A DNA stretch of 8,571 nt. It comes from a virus. Lineage: Duplodnaviria > Heunggongvirae > Uroviricota > Caudoviricetes. Location of the stretch: the IMG/VR virus record IMGVR_UViG_2571042263_000006, one strand, 5' to 3'. Shown in pieces: positions 259-8,571 of this stretch. The notes under the pieces are model-generated. The model saw only the letters and a program-made list of their open reading frames with translations. It made no database searches and was not told where the DNA came from. Each line of letters starts with the position of its first letter. Position 1 is the first letter of the stretch. Made by a program: the position numbers and the translations under genes.

Positions 259-2148
259 TCATAGTGAATCGGTACCGCCTGATTTGACCATACCGCGATA
301 ATCCAGAGCTGCCACACCTGCATCAATACGGACTTTCCAGGCCACGCCGTCAACGATAAAACCTTCCTGCTGTTCAAGGTAAGGTTCGTCATTGCCATCA
401 AGATAAGCCACCTCGATTGTGTCCGTTCCCTGTGCGGAAAGCATGTACCATTGTTTTTCGCTGATATCATCAAGGCGGGGATCGACGATGATATCAAGTA
501 GCTTGTGATACGGGTTAAAGATCCCGCTGTTTTTATCAGCCCCGAAAGGTGCGGTTGAGTTAATCATCTGCAACGCGCGATCTTCCAGTGCTGCCGGAAC
601 TAAAAGGAATTTAGGCGCAATATTCAGCACTTCGCCATTTTTGTCCTTCTGTGTGCGCATCAGGTGACGTGCTGCACTAAGTCCCGGTGTTGTCAGTCCT
701 GCTTCAATCAGGTTGCTGTGTTTTTTGTCAAACAGCGCTATTCCGTCAGAAAGTTTTACGTTGCCTGTAAGCACCAGATTAACCAGATTTCCCACCGTTC
801 TTGATGCTGCACGGCCCATAGCCATTGGCACCGTTGATAACTGATCAAGGTCATCATTGATTATCGCCTGGCGGGTAATGCTGAAAATATTCCCGTAAGT
901 AGCCAGCGCGATGGGTTCACCGCGATCGCTGGTGGTGATGTATTTATATTCTGCCCCTTCCGGCACTTTGTTTAACGTTGAGAAGCCATTCAGACCAACG
1001 CGGCGGGCTTCCCGGAAGTTTGAAAGGGAACCTTTTTTCGTCCACTGGCGGAATGTTTCGCCGCTGTGCTCCCAGCCTGCAAGCACTGATTTTTCAGCGC
1101 CACCAGCAAGGATATCGGTAAAATCGCTGCTGCTGTGGGTGAATGCCGCGTTTACTATCTGCGAGCGTGTGCCGTAGCTGCCCGTGCTTATACCACGATG
1201 GGTTAATGATGCCTGTGCCATATCGAAAAGGCTCATCATGGCGTAAGGATTACCGCGTTCGGCCCGTTCGTGACCAAGACGCGCATTAAGCCCCTGACGC
1301 ATGGCATCGCCGGTTATATTGCCGTTATCCGTGTACGCGTAGTAAAGATTTGCGGGGGTGGTTTTGTTTGTTGGCGTTGATTCTTTACCCATAGCGAGTA
1401 AAAGGCGTTCGCGTGCATTCTCAACGCTACATTCTGAATCCGCAAGACAACTTATAGCCAGGTCGTTATATCTTCCGTTGAAGGTGCCAAACAATTCACG
1501 GATGCCGTTAAGTCGTTCCTGTTCGCCACTGCCAGTTTTCTGGCTGATCATGCTTTTAATTTTTTCCGGCATATTTGAAAAATCTCCGATTCGTTTTGAT
1601 TCAATTCGGGCCATTGCTGTAATCGCGGGTATAACCTCATCTGCGAAACCGTTAGCCTTACACTCATTGCCATCCATCCAGGTTTCCGCCTCCATCATGG
1701 AGGTGATTTCCTGTTTGCTCCTGCCCGTTCTTCCGGCATAGGTTTCTGCCATCGTGTCGCCCAGCTTGTCCATCAGATCAGCAAAGCGGCGAACGTCGCC
1801 CGACACTCCGGCAGTAACACCACGGGGGGCATGTATCATCATCATCGCGTTTTCAGGCATAACGATGTGATCTCCACACATGGCAATAAACGACGCCATA
1901 GAAGCCGCCATGCCTTCAATGTGTACGATTTTTTTTGCCGGATGATTTTTCAGAGCGTTATAGATAGCCAGCCCTTCAAAGATGTCGCCACCAGGTGAAT
2001 GGATGCGAAGATGGATTTCAGACGCATTACCACACGCGTTGATCTCGTCAGTAAGTGCCGATGCCTTTACACCGTACCCGCCGATCTCGTCATAAATGCG
2101 CACATGTACAACATCTGCCATAGCCTTAATGGAAAACCATGTTTTCAT
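259..2148 (-). CDS. Fused prohead (ClpP/S14-like) serine protease and major capsid protein, 629 aa
   Basis: N-terminal ~190 aa carries ClpP-type motifs: GMAASMAS (candidate nucleophile Ser83, codon ~1900-1902) and MMIHAP (candidate His106). The C-terminal ~330 aa is consistent with a phage major capsid protein, with a linker or scaffold-like segment between. ATG at 2148 has AGGAG 7 nt upstream and overlaps the upstream stop (ATGA). Family assignment from motif recall only. Confidence 0.85.
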   Translation of the reverse strand: MKTWFSIKAMADVVHVRIYDEIGGYGVKASALTDEINACGNASEIHLRIHSPGGDIFEGLAIYNALKNHPAKKIVHIEGMAASMASFIAMCGDHIVMPENAMMMIHAPRGVTAGVSGDVRRFADLMDKLGDTMAETYAGRTGRSKQEITSMMEAETWMDGNECKANGFADEVIPAITAMARIESKRIGDFSNMPEKIKSMISQKTGSGEQERLNGIRELFGTFNGRYNDLAISCLADSECSVENARERLLLAMGKESTPTNKTTPANLYYAYTDNGNITGDAMRQGLNARLGHERAERGNPYAMMSLFDMAQASLTHRGISTGSYGTRSQIVNAAFTHSSSDFTDILAGGAEKSVLAGWEHSGETFRQWTKKGSLSNFREARRVGLNGFSTLNKVPEGAEYKYITTSDRGEPIALATYGNIFSITRQAIINDDLDQLSTVPMAMGRAASRTVGNLVNLVLTGNVKLSDGIALFDKKHSNLIEAGLTTPGLSAARHLMRTQKDKNGEVLNIAPKFLLVPAALEDRALQMINSTAPFGADKNSGIFNPYHKLLDIIVDPRLDDISEKQWYMLSAQGTDTIEVAYLDGNDEPYLEQQEGFIVDGVAWKVRIDAGVAALDYRGMVKSGGTDSL

Positions 2149-2339: not shown

Positions 2340-2578
2340 AAATCCGCCTCCGTTTTGATTAACGGGCATCATTATTGATCGATAAAAGTAATAGATAAAT
2401 CATTTTCTACCTGAAAATCAGATTATGTTTTTTCTGATTATTCTCAGAGAGGCAAAGCCATTGACGCATTTTTGCTATTGAAGCAATATTAAGACTCGTC
2501 ATCCTGGCGATAAAAACTCCTTTGTCGTGTAAAAGCGCCTCCGGTAACAGCAATCGGGGGCGTTTTTTTTTGCGCCTG

Positions 2579-2797: not shown

Positions 2798-2866
2798 CAC
2801 TCGTTGCTTAAAACGGTATGTTATCCCCGTACGGATCATCGTTACCCGCCTGTTGTTTTGCCCTGT

Positions 2867-3043
2867 TCAGTGCGTCAGTAGCCTGGCCCTGCTGGCCTTT
2901 TTTACCACCTGGTCGGGATGTTCCTTCGCGTATCCTTCCCCCGCGTGGCGGTCTATCGTTCTGATTGCCACCTTTAAGGCGTGCTCTGTCATGTCTAACG
3001 CTTTATATTTTGGCTCTGTTCTGTCTCTGTGTTTTTGAGTCAT
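2867..3043 (-). CDS. Small basic hypothetical protein (58 aa) immediately after the iteron array
   Basis: The ORF-track version (2867-3175) starts at a GTG inside the iterons with no RBS. ATG at 3043 is preceded by GAGGTGG, which is itself the reverse complement of the first iteron. Lys/Arg-rich. Function unknown. Confidence 0.4.
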   Translation of the reverse strand: MTQKHRDRTEPKYKALDMTEHALKVAIRTIDRHAGEGYAKEHPDQVVKKASRARLLTH

Positions 3044-3045
3044 TT

Positions 3046-3247
3046 GCCCACCTCTACCCACTTTTTTCGCCCACTTTTTACGTTTTCCCACTTCGTCCAA
3101 CGTGGGAAATTTGGGATTTATATCATCTTGTTTCATAAGTATTTTTTTAGTGCCCACTTTTTGGGATATATACACGTGGGAAAGTGGGTAATTTTGTTAA
3201 AATTACGTTAAATTGCCCACCTTTCCCACTTTTAATGCCCACTTTTT
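3046..3247. repeat. Iteron array, candidate origin of replication
   Basis: Eight direct copies of (G/T)CCCAC(C/T)TT with core CCCAC at 3047, 3057, 3070, 3087, 3153, 3216, 3225, 3238, plus three inverted copies (GTGGG at 3102, 3176, 3184). Two iteron clusters flank an AT-rich spacer (3110-3150) and sit immediately 3' of the replication gene, overlapping its stop codon. Confidence 0.65.
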
Positions 3248-4655
3248 ACAGTGGTCCTACATCATCACCGTCAATGTAGATCACGTCGTCTTTTTCCAGT
3301 TTGGCTAACCATCGTTTAAGGTGTTTTGTGTCATACCCCAGCTTTTTCATATCGTCACGTAACAGCGGGATCGTGCACTTGTCGCCGTGCTGTGTGCGTG
3401 AACGTATGCACCCCCATAGCGCGGTATGGTTTTCCGTCTTGTTCCCTGCCTCCTCGATGCGCTCCAGTTCAACGGGAGGGCGCGGCTTATCCACCACCAC
3501 CAGCGACGTGATTAACTCCCCGTCAGCGTCGGTAAAAAGCTCCACCACCCGCAAATCATAGGCAGCCTCTTTGAGTTCCTCCGCGTCCTTCATTTTGGTG
3601 CATGAGATAACCAGCGCTTCGCTTCCTGCGTCCTCCCTGCGTATCCGGTATTCAGCATCCAGCGAAGCACGAAATGCACTGGAACCGCGCGCGCCTTTCG
3701 TCTCATCCTTGCCGGAATGGTGAACCACCAGCACCGTGGCCCCTGTGCGTCGTTTCAGTTCGTCACAACCACGGATAAACGCCCCCATATCACGGGAATC
3801 ATTTTCATCATTCCCACCAAAGCAACGCGCCAGCGTATCCAGAATAATCATGCGTACAGGTTTACCCGTTTCCCGCTCCACCTGACGGGCAGCGATAACC
3901 ATTTCATCAATATCAAGCGGGGCAGCCGGAAAGATGGGACGGTTTACCAGATACAGATTTTTCACCTGCTCACCGTGCACAACCTCCCAGGCTTTTACAC
4001 GACGCGGAACGCCGATACCGCCTTCACCAACCACATAGAGAACAGCGCCATGCGCCACCCTGCGGCCTCCCCACTGGCGGCCCGTGGAAACGTGACACGC
4101 CCACGATCCGGCAAGGAATGATTTATAGGAACCGCTCGCCCCGTATATGCTGCAAAGCGACGATGCCGGAATAATCCCCTTTACCACGTAATCAAGCTGT
4201 GTGTCGTATCCGGTAGATCCAACGCTCATCGGTAGCGTGGTTTTTCGCTGGGGGATTTTTTTCATGACCAGGCTTTCCCCGCGTTCCCATGCCTCCCTAA
4301 GCCGTGGAAGCTGGTCGCTCCATTCCTCCAGCAATTCGAAATTTTCAGAAAGTAGCCGCGCCTCCTGGACTCCGGCGATCGCCAGTTTCGTGGCGATGGT
4401 TAACAGCTGCGGCTCTTCAATATTTCCGGCGCGTATCACCGTCGCCCTGTATCGCCCATCATCAACAATCTGGAGGTTATCCAGTTCGCTTAACTGATAA
4501 CGCCCCAGATAAACGGGAGGGACTGGATCTCCTGCTTTTTTTGCCTGTGCAATGATGTAATGCTCTGCGAATGAATGAGCATCAATACCCGCAAAAATAA
4601 TCGCATCGGTGTATTTATCTTTCGGTAATCGTTTTACGTTCGGTGCCAGTTTCAT
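3246..4655 (-). CDS. Replication initiator: RecA-fold P-loop ATPase / helicase (RepA/DnaB-like, AAA_25-type) with N-terminal domain of unknown function and probable C-terminal origin-binding domain, 469 aa
   Basis: Walker A GASGSYKS (res 172-179), Walker B RMIILD (res 268-273), VVHHSGKD (res 310-317). AGGAG 6 nt upstream of ATG at 4655. Start overlaps the upstream stop (ATGA). Iterons lie directly downstream. Confidence 0.85.
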   Translation of the reverse strand: MKLAPNVKRLPKDKYTDAIIFAGIDAHSFAEHYIIAQAKKAGDPVPPVYLGRYQLSELDNLQIVDDGRYRATVIRAGNIEEPQLLTIATKLAIAGVQEARLLSENFELLEEWSDQLPRLREAWERGESLVMKKIPQRKTTLPMSVGSTGYDTQLDYVVKGIIPASSLCSIYGASGSYKSFLAGSWACHVSTGRQWGGRRVAHGAVLYVVGEGGIGVPRRVKAWEVVHGEQVKNLYLVNRPIFPAAPLDIDEMVIAARQVERETGKPVRMIILDTLARCFGGNDENDSRDMGAFIRGCDELKRRTGATVLVVHHSGKDETKGARGSSAFRASLDAEYRIRREDAGSEALVISCTKMKDAEELKEAAYDLRVVELFTDADGELITSLVVVDKPRPPVELERIEEAGNKTENHTALWGCIRSRTQHGDKCTIPLLRDDMKKLGYDTKHLKRWLAKLEKDDVIYIDGDDVGPL

Positions 4656-4951
4656 TTTTTACTCCTGAATCCGTTAATCATGGTTTTCAGCTTCTGGATG
4701 TTTGCCCGTGCCCTGGCGTTGCTGGTGGGCACGTTATGCGGCGCGGTCTGTACCAGAGAAAAATCACGCCGGAACTGATAAACAGGCATCACGCAATCAT
4801 ATTCGTAACCTTCACGGCGGTAGGTTACGCGCCGTTCTTCCACGCCCTTAATCATTACCGTGCCGCCGTACTGGTCGCGGTAAATATCACCGCGCGTAAA
4901 TTTAGGGTGAGTGTTGCCACTGGCAGTTAAGCCAGAATATTTAAGTTTCAT
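4652..4951 (-). CDS. Hypothetical protein, 99 aa (possibly DUF4222-like, with YRD and GYE motifs)
   Basis: GGAGA 9 nt upstream of ATG at 4951; stop overlaps the rep start. Contains IYRDQYG and REGYEYD; the DUF4222 link is from memory and unverified. Confidence 0.65.
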   Translation of the reverse strand: MKLKYSGLTASGNTHPKFTRGDIYRDQYGGTVMIKGVEERRVTYRREGYEYDCVMPVYQFRRDFSLVQTAPHNVPTSNARARANIQKLKTMINGFRSKK

Positions 4952-5413: not shown

Positions 5414-5628
5414 AACCCCCCCCCATTTTCACAATCAGCAATAAGAATATTTTTAGCGTCATTCAGCGACCGTGTGGCGGTGTATCGGATACATTCCAGG
5501 GCGAACTGTGTCCGGTCTTTCTGTTCTTCTCCCTGCGCAAGCTCTGCCGTGCATTCAATATCAATAAGCGCGTGCATCAGCGTAGTGAGCGCGGCGGCGG
5601 CTGCGTCCGGTGTGGTTTTATTGTGCAT
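5386..5628 (-). CDS. Small hypothetical protein, 80 aa, possibly the 5' part of a frameshift-split gene
   Basis: ATG at 5628 with GGGGGA 5 nt upstream (the ORF-track start at 5670 is not an ATG). Reads through the G9 tract and stops 28 nt into the next ORF. Confidence 0.5.
   Translation of the reverse strand: MHNKTTPDAAAAALTTLMHALIDIECTAELAQGEEQKDRTQFALECIRYTATRSLNDAKNILIADCENGGGLCVMIVLIP
5416..5424 (-). repeat. Homopolymeric tract, nine G on the coding (minus) strand, C9 on plus
   Basis: Plus strand 5416-5424 is CCCCCCCCC. It encodes Gly-Gly-Gly near the C-terminus of ORF 5386-5628 and lies 2 nt upstream of the ATG of ORF 5192-5413. Confidence 0.9.
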
Positions 5629-5818
5629 AGGTTTCCCCCTGGCGAATACGGGCGGCAAATACAGCAACACAACCGGACGGGCAACGGCTACGCGCTTCGC
5701 GTTCCGTCCAGGCGGTTACGTGGATGATTTGACGGTCTGACGCGCCGACGGCAATAAAGCGCCACACAAAGGCCGTTTGTGTGTGTGCTAGTCGTGGAGT
5801 ATGATTTACGGCAACCAT
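5618..5818 (-). CDS. Small hypothetical protein, 66 aa, possible first gene of the early operon
   Basis: ATG at 5818 preceded by GAGGAG 5 nt upstream. GC-rich, Ala/Arg-rich; no recognisable motif. Could instead be a structured 5' leader. Confidence 0.35.
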   Translation of the reverse strand: MVAVNHTPRLAHTQTAFVWRFIAVGASDRQIIHVTAWTEREARSRCPSGCVAVFAARIRQGETYAQ

Positions 5819-6016
5819 AACGGCTCCTCGTTTACGTTGTTGGTTAGAAGCCCCGTTACTGCTCCAACAGTGCGGGGCTTCGTCGTTTCAATTGCTGAAT
5901 TGCATGTATCAGCTCTTGTGGTATTCAGATTACATTTAAGTGAATACCATTTCAAGCTTTTTTGGGTATTCACTTTTGTGTTACACTGCATCCCGCTATT
6001 AATCGGAGGTGCAAAC
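5819..6016. promoter_or_regulatory. Divergent control region between the early operon (minus) and the Arc-like regulator gene (plus), with candidate operators
   Basis: 9-bp inverted repeat GAAGCCCCG (5847-5855) / CGGGGCTTC (5872-5880). GGTATTCA at 5920-5927 and 5965-5972 with the inverted copy TGAATACC at 5941-5948. No confident -35/-10 assignment could be made. Confidence 0.5.
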
Positions 6017-6322
6017 ATGTCCACGAGTTCTGTTAACAATAAGTCACAGCAACTGAATGCCAGATTTCCACATGAAGTAGTGAGTGGCATTGAGGCATCC
6101 CTACAGCCAGGGGAAACTAAAGCGAATTTTATAGTTACAGCAGTACGCGGTGAGATCGCCCGCCGCCAAGCAGAAGGAAGAGGAGAAAACCCCCTGGTTT
6201 CTTCGCTCGATGCACTGGCGCAGGTGGAAAAAATCGGAGTCAAAGCAGCCGAGGAGATCGGGCAACTCGTCACCATCGCGCGTGAAGAACTCCAGCGTCG
6301 CAAGACCCAAGAATCAGAATAA
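6017..6322 (+). CDS. Arc/Mnt-like ribbon-helix-helix transcriptional regulator, 101 aa
   Basis: ATG at 6017 with GGAGG 7 nt upstream (ORF-track start 5801 rejected). N-terminal LNARFPHEVVSGIEA matches the Arc-type beta-strand and first helix pattern (Arc: FNLRWPREVLDLV). Tandem stop TAATAA. Confidence 0.7.
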   Translation: MSTSSVNNKSQQLNARFPHEVVSGIEASLQPGETKANFIVTAVRGEIARRQAEGRGENPLVSSLDALAQVEKIGVKAAEEIGQLVTIAREELQRRKTQESE

Positions 6323-6379
6323 TAACTATCAGCGCCGTGGCGTGAGGAACTCCGGCGCATTGCTTTACAGGTCGGCACT

Positions 6380-6589
6380 ATGAGCAAAAAATACCTATCC
6401 ACTGAAGAGATTTTCGCAGAACAACGAAGATTGCTTTTACAGAGCATTGTTGCACGCCAGAAAGAAAAGGCACACGCTAAACAAATGCCACCAAATACAG
6501 AACCAGCGCCTACAAAATTTGCGCTTGATGAGTTTCTCAATAAACAGCCCCGGGTAATGAAAGCTAACAGGAACCGCCCACCAGGCTGA
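6380..6589 (+). CDS. Hypothetical protein, 69 aa, downstream of the Arc-like gene
   Basis: ATG 57 nt after the Arc-like stop with only a weak AGGT RBS. Non-repetitive composition; no recognisable motif. Confidence 0.4.
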   Translation: MSKKYLSTEEIFAEQRRLLLQSIVARQKEKAHAKQMPPNTEPAPTKFALDEFLNKQPRVMKANRNRPPG

Positions 6590-6653
6590 TCACATTGCCC
6601 ACCAGCCAGCAAATCGCTATGATGGCTGGGCTTATGTTTAGTGTATTCCCACT

Positions 6654-6684
6654 GGCGGCCTCTGATCCGGGTCGCCTTTGTTTT
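6654..6684 (+). terminator. Candidate rho-independent terminator for the plus-strand regulator operon
   Basis: GGCGGCC (6654-6660), 9-nt loop, GGTCGCC (6670-6676, one G-U pair), then TTTGTTTT. It sits between the convergent plus-strand operon and alpA. Confidence 0.4.
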
Positions 6685-6703
6685 ATGTGTCATATGCCCC
6701 CCT

Positions 6704-6913
6704 TTACGCTGCCTTGCCTGAATTAATGCGATCCCGGCTTTTAACCCATTCCATAACCTCGGACAGCAGCCAACCTACAGAACGACCGCCCAGATTACGG
6801 CGTGACGGGAAATTCCCTTTTTTCTCCAGTTCATAGCGTGTAGTGCGACACACTCCAGTTAACTTACGACATTCATCCTCACGGATTACGCGATCTTCAT
6901 TTATTTCACGCAT
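6704..6913 (-). CDS. alpA: AlpA-family phage transcriptional regulator / excisionase-like DNA-binding protein, 69 aa
   Basis: Translation contains the AlpA-family core LTGVCRTTRYELEKKGNFPSRRNLGGRSVGWLLSEVMEWV. Positioned downstream of int on the same strand, as in CP4-57 and P4-like islands. Confidence 0.85.
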   Translation of the reverse strand: MREINEDRVIREDECRKLTGVCRTTRYELEKKGNFPSRRNLGGRSVGWLLSEVMEWVKSRDRINSGKAA

Positions 6914-7332: not shown

Positions 7333-8571
7333 TCAAGGATTTTGGGTGTAAATTCGCGGGGTCATAACAACGATTTTTTCATCATTGTTCTGGAGAAGCT
7401 CGAGACGGTCTACCCATAGATTAAGAGCATCACGTTTTGCATCAAGATAACGGGAGTGGTTATAGACTCGTTGCATCCCCGGCATCTGGTGGGCGGTAAG
7501 CTGCTCGACAATATGCGGATCCACGCCTAAATCGTTCAGCATGGTTGTAAATGTGTGCCGGATGTCATGCAACGACCAGGGGGCTTGATTAATGCGTCTG
7601 TGTGCCGTTCTTCCGTACTCTGCTACGGATGATTGCCCTTTCAGTTCTCCAAGCAATAAGCCCGTGTGCCTGTTCTTCTCCACCAGCTTCATGACAAACG
7701 GCAAGATCGCTTCCGGTATTGGCCTGAATATTGCTACCTTCGTTTTGCTGTGTTCTTTCGGCACAGTCCAGAGCATTTCTTTAAAATCCCATTCCTGAAC
7801 CTCGGAGCGTCTTAGCTCAGTGGTACGGCATCCAAAGACAATCAGAAGGCGAATTAAGGCGCTGTAGTACGGCGGGAAAATTTTTTCATCCAGTGCGCGG
7901 AGTAGCTCGCCAAGCTCCTTGTTTGTTAGCACTCGCTCGCTTATTTCTGCTTTTTTTCCCACATCACCTACGACCATATCATCAAGAACGTTACTGACGG
8001 CGTAGCGACGTTTACGGCAGTACTTAAGCGCCTGCTTGCATACCTGCAACAAAAAGCCGGCTGATACCGGATTACGCTTAGCAAGCTGGTCAAAACAGGC
8101 CAGCCAGTGGCGTAGCTCGCATTTATCCAGCGGCATAGCACCAATCTGGCTGATTATGTGCTTATTGATCCGGCTTTTCAGTGATTCGTGGTCAGTGCGC
8201 TTTTCCTTCGCGTATGACTCAAGCCAGTAAGTGATCGCGTCCTTAACCGTTACAGGTGCTAACGCTTCCTGCACTGTGTGATTAAGCTCATGGCGTGGAT
8301 TTTTCCCCTCTGCCAGCCAGGCGCGACACTGTGCCGCTTTTTCTCTGGCTGCTTTCAGGCTCAGATCGGGATAGTTGCCCAGTCTCAGGCGTTCCGGTGA
8401 TACCTGCCTGCCAGTTCCGGCCCTGTAAGTGAAATACCAGGTTAACAGGCCATTGGTTGAATGCCTTACGCTAAGGTTGCCACCATCATTAAAAAAGGTG
8501 TTTTTTGTGGTTGGTGATCCGCTTAATTTTCGTAAAAGAGTGTCGCTAAGTCTATGAATTGCCCTGCTCAT
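7333..8571 (-). CDS. int: P4-type tyrosine integrase (site-specific recombinase), 412 aa
   Basis: N-terminal arm-binding-type region (LSDTLLRKL...FNDGGNLSVRHSTNGLLTWYFTYR) and C-terminal catalytic motifs HDIRHTF (H-x-x-R) and VYNHSRY (Tyr nucleophile region). The first ATG is the last three bases of the window, so the true start could lie just outside. Confidence 0.9.
   Translation of the reverse strand: MSRAIHRLSDTLLRKLSGSPTTKNTFFNDGGNLSVRHSTNGLLTWYFTYRAGTGRQVSPERLRLGNYPDLSLKAAREKAAQCRAWLAEGKNPRHELNHTVQEALAPVTVKDAITYWLESYAKEKRTDHESLKSRINKHIISQIGAMPLDKCELRHWLACFDQLAKRNPVSAGFLLQVCKQALKYCRKRRYAVSNVLDDMVVGDVGKKAEISERVLTNKELGELLRALDEKIFPPYYSALIRLLIVFGCRTTELRRSEVQEWDFKEMLWTVPKEHSKTKVAIFRPIPEAILPFVMKLVEKNRHTGLLLGELKGQSSVAEYGRTAHRRINQAPWSLHDIRHTFTTMLNDLGVDPHIVEQLTAHQMPGMQRVYNHSRYLDAKRDALNLWVDRLELLQNNDEKIVVMTPRIYTQNP

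Follow-up and report, generated by a model that had tools for sequence, protein, structure and literature searches.

A predicted Arc/Mnt-like repressor with candidate operators, a putative antisense RNA and a long antisense open frame in an enterobacterial PICI-type satellite

Introduction

The Stl repressor of the Staphylococcus aureus pathogenicity islands (SaPIs) is a helix-turn-helix protein whose gene is co-oriented with the integrase gene (int) and which is inactivated by binding a helper-phage protein. In SaPIs and other Gram-positive phage-inducible chromosomal islands (PICIs) the Stl (Rpr) gene diverges from the excision and replication operon and its product keeps the island quiescent; in Gram-negative PICIs the global repressor was stated to be unclear and AlpA was described as an activator sufficient for induction (PMC6092414). 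The initial annotation of the DNA treated here likewise had Gram-negative PICIs as usually described as AlpA-activated and without such a repressor. The present analysis concerns an 8,571-nt stretch of viral DNA (IMG/VR record IMGVR_UViG_2571042263_000006, called the window throughout), in which a gene encoding a ribbon-helix-helix (RHH) protein (rhh) stands back to back with an early/replication operon across a set of repeated sites. When all parts of the favoured explanation are taken jointly, the region 5777-6686 probably serves a PICI-type phage satellite of enterobacteria as its immunity/regulatory module.

The immI region of phage P22 contains the two RHH repressors Mnt and Arc, the ant gene and the sar antisense RNA, and Mnt consists of an N-terminal RHH domain followed by a C-terminal tetramerisation helix. 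In the immunity region of satellite phage P4, which includes vis, the long eta open reading frame (ORF) is translationally coupled to the alpA homologue, holds the internal early promoter PLE and ends in the nested kil gene; translation of eta lets the upstream promoter read through, and the leader of the replication operon is the target of an RNA-based immunity (PMC10111431; PMC4825925). The island EcCICFT073, which is related to the one studied here, is experimentally a PICI (PMC6092414).

Results and Discussion

Repeated sites and predicted promoters between rhh and the early operon

The rhh gene lies between alpA and an icd-like gene and diverges from the minus-strand operon made up of the icd-like gene, small ORFs, a DUF4222 gene and a RepA-type helicase gene. 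The two are separated by 198 bp (5819-6016), in keeping with the ~200 bp of the initial annotation, and GGAGG at 6005-6009 precedes the rhh ATG. The following features were assigned.

6017-6322 (+): rhh gene of the YlcI/YnfO family, 101 amino acids (aa) plus stop
5618-5818 (-): icd-like gene, first gene of the early/replication operon (NCBIfam NF033153, 6e-18; PHROG 29966, profile positions 126-187 of 188)
5919-5927: candidate operator site 1, TGGTATTCA, overlapping the last base of the early -10 and the predicted early start site
5938-5949: candidate operator site 2, AAGTGAATACCA, within the spacer that separates the early -35 and -10, in inverted orientation with respect to sites 1 and 3
5965-5975: candidate operator site 3, GGTATTCACTT, in the spacer of the rhh promoter
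5986-5994: degenerate candidate operator site 4, CTGcATcCC, shortly past the rhh -10
5927-5955 (-): predicted early promoter, P(early), with -35 TTGAAA (5955-5950), a 17-nt spacer and -10 TAATCT (5932-5927)
5959-5987 (+): predicted rhh promoter, with weak -35 TTTTTG (5959-5964), TG at 5979-80 and -10 TACACT (5982-5987)

The palindrome with a 13-nt spacer that had been noted initially is present and slightly longer than first given (TGGTATTCA at 5919-5927 and TGAATACCA at 5941-5949), as is the third, direct half-site (GGTATTCA at 5965-5972). Elsewhere in the window, both strands considered, the exact 8-mer occurs once (~0.26 expected), and three exact copies within 53 bp are thus unlikely to have arisen by chance. 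The middle and third sites also form a perfect 11-nt inverted repeat (AAGTGAATACC at 5938-5948 and GGTATTCACTT at 5965-5975) with a spacer of 16 nt. The core of site 4 (TGcATcCC, 5987-5994) was recognised by comparison with related loci in which this site is well preserved, such as CTGAATACCAC in L027 and CTGAAACACACC in L002.

Twenty further loci were collected from E. coli genomes, other Enterobacterales and metagenomes; a scan of genome contigs gave only seven loci, the E. coli genomes and a search for contigs encoding relatives supplying the larger share of the diversity. In 20 of 20 the rhh gene diverges from an operon led by an Icd-like gene. A fixed plan was found across the 21 loci, with sites at approximately -98, -76, -52 and -30 from the rhh ATG and the elements in the order site 1, site 2, minus-strand -35, site 3, plus-strand -10 and site 4. 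The minus-strand -35 (TTGAC(A/G/C) or TTGAAA) stands at -62 from the rhh ATG in most of the loci, each time with TAnnnT as -10 after 17 nt, and the position of the rhh -10 (TATACT, TATAAT or TACACT) is likewise conserved. Sites 1 and 2 fall on the spacer, -10 and start of P(early), and the rhh promoter is covered in like manner by sites 3 and 4, an arrangement that supports a predicted repressor-operator pair able to occlude both the early promoter and the repressor's own promoter.

The RHH protein

The protein matched the NCBIfam family NF041551 (YlcI/YnfO) over residues 9-50 with 60.3 bits against a curated cut-off of 30 (E=1.3e-16), in agreement with the RefSeq annotation. It comprises an Arc/Mnt-like RHH domain at about residues 9-52 and a conserved long C-terminal helix (residues 59-100). 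In the family alignment residues 11-15 are very variable, R16-x-P18 is invariant and the C-terminal half (residues 38-101) is highly conserved, whatever the operator class. An AlphaFold2 model of residues 1-56, computed from a broader family alignment, had a pLDDT of 88.7 and displayed an extended N-terminus and helices 19-28 and 35-52; the topology is that of the RHH (MetJ/Arc) fold, in which ~45 residues form an N-terminal strand and helices A and B joined by a short turn. Nearly all matches in a fold search with this domain model were RHH proteins, Arc included. The full-length model contains helices 19-28, 35-54 and 59-100, and in fold searches its long helix dominated, with MazE, TraM, Rv0298, SeqA-N and Reg576 among the matches.

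Alignment with hhalign placed Q11-T34 on Arc residues 8-32 (P=0.004, at low probability) in the register QQLNARFPHEVV (rhh) against PQFNLRWPREVL (Arc), so that residues 12, 14 and 16 stand opposite Arc Gln9, Asn11 and Arg13. These three Arc residues contact bases, as established by structural work on Arc. The Pfam family PSK_trans_fac, of the RHH clan, was matched below threshold (0.014) and recurred in 23 of 33 family members, and remote members gave weak single matches to RHH_1, RHH_5, CopG_antitoxin, TacA1 and NikA-like families. No RHH entry was returned when PDB sequences were searched with a profile of the family alignment; the sole marginal match was of the C-terminal part (LDALAQVEKIGVKAAEEIGQLV, 6190-6290, residues ~58-92) to the helix-hairpin-helix domain of Hef (E=0.042). 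The models thus suggest a protein that is Arc-like at the level of the fold, as the initial annotation had proposed, and that with its C-terminal helix has a Mnt-like architecture; the C-terminal half could be an oligomerisation or partner-binding surface.

An RHH protein encoded beside a small downstream gene might also be the antitoxin of a type II toxin-antitoxin pair, in which case ORF69 would be the toxin and the repeats only the autoregulatory operator of that pair. The two features concerned are as follows.

6380-6589 (+): ORF69, a small basic protein of 69 aa, co-oriented with rhh, between alpA and the icd-like gene
6654-6686 (+): terminator-like hairpin with a T-run, closing the rhh-ORF69 transcription unit

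ORF69 gave no Pfam, NCBIfam or PHROG match and so no match to a toxin family, and an ORF69-like gene is absent from L027, L008-L012 and L024, which keep both the RHH gene and the operators (in L004 PGAP called no gene there). The 58-nt gap between rhh and ORF69 is atypical for coupling, two of the four sites lie on the divergent early promoter, and the constant partner of rhh across the loci is the Icd-like operon rather than ORF69. This pairing, which the initial annotation had named as a finding that would count against a repressor, is accordingly very unlikely. Where they occur, ORF69 homologues are 57-75 aa long, carry the motif (K/R)FAL(D/E)xFL, start 58 nt after rhh and are confined to E. 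coli loci.

Site sequence follows the predicted DNA-reading strand

Comparison of residues 11-15 with the site sequences of the same loci gave the following classes.

QQLNA or QQINA: GTGAAT(A/C)(C/G)C, in the window, L027 (Yersinia), L013 (Phytobacter), L023 and L006
QQIGA: GTGAAC, in L026
KQISI: TGAATCACA, in L014
QLTTV: TGAAACACAC, in L002-4 and L009-12
QSLTA: TGTAAGAC, in L005 and L007
QMTTL: GTGATATAC, in L029

The alternating strand residues 12 and 14 change along with the sites and R16 stays constant, which gives indirect support to an RHH dimer that would place a two-stranded antiparallel sheet in the major groove. In P0011 and L029 the C-terminal half is exactly that of the window, combined with another N-terminus and other sites, so that what is exchanged as one unit is the operators plus the DNA-reading portion of the protein, as it is in the immunity regions of phages. 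Among 17 close relatives the core sites are invariant and 12 other positions within 5906-6016 vary. A search of IMG/VR with the palindrome, aimed at possible helper-phage targets, gave 22 matches, 16 of them in the same islands, 97 nt upstream of a QQLNARF protein. The remaining six lie in unrelated places and are consistent with chance. Conservation of position in 21 loci and the tracking of the DNA-reading strand by the site sequence support the view that the repeats behave as operators of the RHH protein, in line with the candidate operators proposed at the outset.

Several points weigh against a repressor role. The correspondence between site and protein could in part be linkage, the operators and N-terminal codons being adjacent and perhaps moving as one recombination block. 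In sequence searches against Arc and CopG, the comparison suggested in the initial annotation, no significant match was obtained. A generic promoter scan of the window did not report P(early), which was missed because of its weak -10 (TAATCT). The form of the protein in EcCICFT073 and L006 has 59 aa and lacks the C-terminal helix, so tetramerisation is not universal. The E. coli K-12 proteins YlcI and YnfO share the N-terminal domain family (DUF3950, NF041551), YlcI with the pattern RFP...GS.NFS..VIEA.RRR, but they are ~64 aa long, belong to cryptic lambdoid prophages and stand in the late region beside cos/nohD, with neither an Icd-like partner nor a long antisense frame. In DLP12, ylcI (L033 7252-7446, minus strand) diverges from nohD directly beside cos, a hint that the lambdoid members work close to the packaging site and not at an early promoter; that a protein belongs to the family thus does not make it a repressor. 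Over-expression of AlpA alone induces EcCICFT073, and the data were explained without a repressor (PMC6092414), so that the RHH protein may not be the master switch. The evidence assembled for binding and repression is, moreover, computational throughout.

Linkage and the position of ylcI beside cos and nohD would also suit an account in which another factor (AlpA, a helper-phage protein or the replication initiator) binds the repeats, the strand match reflects co-inheritance of contiguous operators and N-terminal codons carried together by recombination modules, and the RHH protein acts elsewhere, for example at packaging sites. Yet L027, L013 and L023 keep the GAAT core together with a QQxNAR strand despite diverged intergenic sequence, and for this reason a functional pairing was favoured over linkage; the single strand change from N to G in L026 coincides with the change from GAAT to GAAC. 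The recombination boundary lies just past the DNA-reading part, as in phage immunity modules, mirrored sites on the own promoter are typical of autoregulating RHH repressors, and, in the loci examined, AlpA type and site class do not correspond. Binding by another factor is possible, but it is less parsimonious than binding by the RHH protein and was judged unlikely.

A predicted antisense RNA over the start of the icd-like gene

On the early-operon side of the operators, the plus strand carries two further predicted elements.

~5812-5892 (+): predicted cis-antisense small RNA of ~80 nt, ends approximate
5777-5805 (+): predicted promoter of the antisense RNA (TTGTGT, 17-nt spacer, TATGAT), inside the 5' end of the icd-like ORF

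The predicted RNA is complementary to the icd-like Shine-Dalgarno (SD) sequence (5826-5831) and start codon (5816-5818), and the anti-SD motif CUCCUC forms the loop of its first stem-loop. Conservation in the region is highest in a GC-rich terminator hairpin (5847-5881), behind which come U-rich tails with 4-7 U in their first 12 nt. The antisense -10 (TATGAT, TATGCT or TAGACT) is conserved in position ~40 nt upstream, although the encoded Icd-like N-terminus varies. The consensus structure was derived from an alignment of 20 loci, in which 96.7% of the cells in paired positions could pair on the plus strand as against 81.7% on the minus strand, with 61 G-U cells on the plus strand and one on the minus strand. 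Ten covarying pairs showed compensatory change, and none of 500 shuffles reached the observed values. The minimum free energy of the plus-strand RNA was -33 kcal/mol (z=-5.2), compared with z=-3.2 for the other strand. A covarying structure confined to one strand, a U-rich tail, an upstream promoter and complementarity to a translation-initiation region are the marks of a cis-antisense small RNA, to which class the predicted RNA would belong.

An Rfam scan of the window at E<=1 returned no C4, isrK or other known RNA and only two weak, irrelevant matches, to ctRNA_p42d and RsaJ. The former (2531-2573, plus strand, 24 bits, E=0.095, sub-threshold) consists of a GC hairpin followed by a T-run and is probably a mere intrinsic terminator. 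A C4-type immunity RNA (Rfam RF01695, 74 bits) was found only in the related locus L002, at 5607-5695 on the minus strand, within a frameshifted second Icd-like gene; some PICIs therefore have a P1/P4-type RNA in addition to the RHH module. On the minus strand of the window, at 5763-5783, a terminator-like hairpin (CACACAAACGGCCTTTGTGTG and then GCGCTTTATT) was also observed 35-55 nt inside the icd-like ORF, overlapping the predicted antisense -35; at the equivalent position other loci have a different hairpin, CCCGCCCTTGCGGG. This hairpin could be an attenuator for early transcripts.

A long open frame antisense to rhh

The strand opposite to rhh contains a long open frame that begins directly behind alpA.

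6704-6913 (-): alpA (Pfam Phage_AlpA, 2.9e-16), upstream of the eta-like frame and in the same orientation
5806-6693 (-): eta-like open frame, 295 codons from the ATG at 6693

The ATG lies 11 nt past the alpA stop, the frame ends 13 nt inside the icd-like gene, and it runs antisense through ORF69, rhh and the operator region. From 6774 to 5806 it contains no stop, compared with 18 and 20 stops in the other two minus-strand frames. It is open in most of the 20 related loci, in many of them in frame with the Icd-like gene; over the 200 nt upstream of rhh it lacks a stop in 12 of 20 loci of different operator classes, where the other frames average ~5 stops. In EcCICFT073 (L032 9749-11051, plus strand) the corresponding frame is that of the Icd-like gene and is open for 1.3 kb, with no stop where the other two frames have 27 and 31. 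The third codon positions of the eta-like frame coincide with those of rhh, so its openness over the coding parts is of little weight, and synonymous permutation left it open 28% and 48% of the time there; across the 198-nt operator region, it stayed open in only 1.7% of shuffles.

Such a frame could itself be the real gene at 5806-6693, with the plus-strand RHH ORF an annotation artefact, and its conserved openness across rhh and the operator region in most loci, as well as the 428-aa (L027) and 495-aa (L026) products that gene callers placed across the region, would fit that account. Substitutions among the 17 close relatives nevertheless follow the RHH frame (18/6/39 at codon positions 1/2/3), the minus frame having 6/18/39, in which the second position is not the most conserved. 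The RHH family exists by itself elsewhere, as with K-12 ylcI, the RHH-fold model is confident, and the SD sequence and ATG are kept in each locus. Ser, Cys and Arg abound in the minus-strand product, for which no Pfam or PHROG family match was obtained. On the codon-position pattern, the independent family and the model, the minus-strand ORF as the only real gene was rejected as most improbable. Within the operator region the codon-position counts for the eta-like frame (14/15/16) are uninformative, the flanks being mosaic among relatives. Since the substitutions follow rhh and the product has no family, it seems that what is conserved is the openness of the frame and not a protein.

Comparison with described systems and a proposed mechanism

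The initial annotation had likened the divergent gene to the master repressor of SaPIs. The likeness is one of function only, a repressor gene divergent from the early operon of a satellite; here the fold is RHH, rhh diverges from the early operon and is transcribed in the direction opposite to int and alpA, AlpA activation runs in parallel and no sensor of a helper protein is evident, although the C-terminal helix could serve as a partner surface for a helper-phage protein. The fourth site, the antisense RNA and the eta-like frame make P22 immI and P4 immunity better comparisons than SaPI Stl. P22 immI shares an Arc/Mnt-type RHH gene divergent from the operon it controls, operators on back-to-back promoters and a small cis-antisense RNA, here predicted, over the ribosome-binding site of the first gene. 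The locus differs from immI in that the RHH protein gave no significant sequence match to Arc or Mnt, its half-sites stand at a distance of 22 bp and not 11 bp, a satellite replication operon would be controlled instead of an antirepressor gene, and rhh is enclosed by an open frame of the opposite strand.

With P4 the locus shares an alpA homologue followed by a long coupled ORF that contains an internal early promoter and ends in a small gene, and by this analogy the icd-like gene is likely the counterpart of kil, a cell-killing/division-inhibitor gene; a tblastn search of P4 with the Icd-like protein gave no match. P4 immunity relies on a processed same-strand RNA (CI with seqA and seqC; Rfam C4/isrK type, CL00128) and has no protein repressor, whereas here a true antisense RNA is predicted and a divergent RHH gene lies antisense in the long frame.

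A mechanism in several steps can be envisaged from these parallels. In the quiescent island, RHH dimers, probably joined as tetramers by the C-terminal helix, would bind the four 9-11-bp sites at ~22-bp intervals. Binding at sites 1 and 2 would shut off the early promoter of the icd-like gene, the small ORFs, DUF4222 and the RepA helicase, binding at sites 3 and 4 would autoregulate rhh, and pairing of the antisense RNA with the icd-like SD sequence and start codon would block translation of leaky early transcripts. Upon activation of alpA, induced by the helper, the alpA transcript would read into the eta-like frame, translationally coupled to alpA; as in P4 eta/kil, ribosomes would carry transcription through the repressed region to the icd-like and replication genes, and since this transcription is convergent with that of rhh, collision and interference would result.

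We tentatively put forward, with less confidence than the assignment of the region as a whole, that the locus represents an undescribed three-part immunity module of Gram-negative PICIs, in which an Arc/Mnt-like repressor with at least eight operator specificities is combined with a cis-antisense RNA and with a translated eta-like frame whose AlpA-driven, ribosome-protected read-through would bypass and silence the repressor. If so, the module would account for the quiescence of these islands and divide PICIs into immunity groups, and it would be a rare instance of a working gene that lies antisense within a frame kept open for translation.

Distribution of the module and its implications

A 551-nt query matched 1254 of 5426 complete E. 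coli genomes (~23%), where the pair is annotated as YlcI/YnfO beside Icd-like. EcCICFT073 carries the 59-aa version (C_RS30120) divergent from an Icd-like gene (C_RS30125); both locus tags were added late, the module not having been annotated there originally. Judged from these sequences, the module is a core part of E. coli PICIs, EcCICFT073 included. The co-occurrence of AlpA and a divergent putative repressor that the initial annotation had singled out was found, with both genes present, but it is not peculiar to this island and is the norm in E. coli PICIs; repression itself and the two-layer switch suggested at that stage are inferred. The earlier interpretation (an Arc-like repressor with operators on the early promoter, alongside AlpA) is partly supported and seems right in substance, with three corrections: the arrangement is a general PICI feature, P22 immI and P4 replace SaPI Stl as models, and layers of RNA and translation are added.

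Searching 50,697 phage records by tblastn with the RHH protein gave no match, and with the Icd-like protein a single match, in a 16.5-kb record, which argues that the long form of the RHH protein belongs to satellites rather than to phages. A 2026 survey listed YlcI/YnfO only as a 'prophage-associated protein', and literature searches returned no paper tying YlcI/YnfO, the RHH protein or the antisense RNA to the control of PICIs.

Were the RHH protein to act as a repressor, the module would explain the quiescence of Gram-negative PICIs, predict immunity classes that perhaps govern coexistence or exclusion of islands, offer a direct genetic handle on satellite induction, through deletion of rhh or exchange of operators, and tie the control of PICIs to P4 and P22 immI at the level of mechanism. 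The frame that stays open across rhh would be a testable example of translation maintained to carry transcription across a regulatory region.

The island and its remaining genes

The window is 100% identical to the chromosome of E. coli 042 between clpS and cspD and spans most of an island of ~9-10 kb. The genes outside the regulatory region include the following.

7333-8571 (-): tyrosine integrase
4652-4951 (-): DUF4222 gene, separated from the icd-like gene by four small ORFs on the same strand
3246-4655 (-): RepA-type helicase
259-2148 (-): fusion of a ClpP-like prohead protease and a major capsid protein, 629 aa

The AlpA match and the tyrosine integrase confirm the assignment, made initially, to the AlpA-type islands. 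The integrase, alpA and replication genes are co-oriented on the minus strand, the element is small and it occupies a specific site (clpS/cspD), all of which characterise Gram-negative PICIs. In the RefSeq annotation no portal or terminase gene is given from the capsid fusion to the end of the island near clpS, so the head module is incomplete. At ~2808-3136 on the minus strand RefSeq places two pseudogene fragments, of a single-stranded DNA-binding protein and of a hypothetical protein, which point to decay downstream of the helicase gene.

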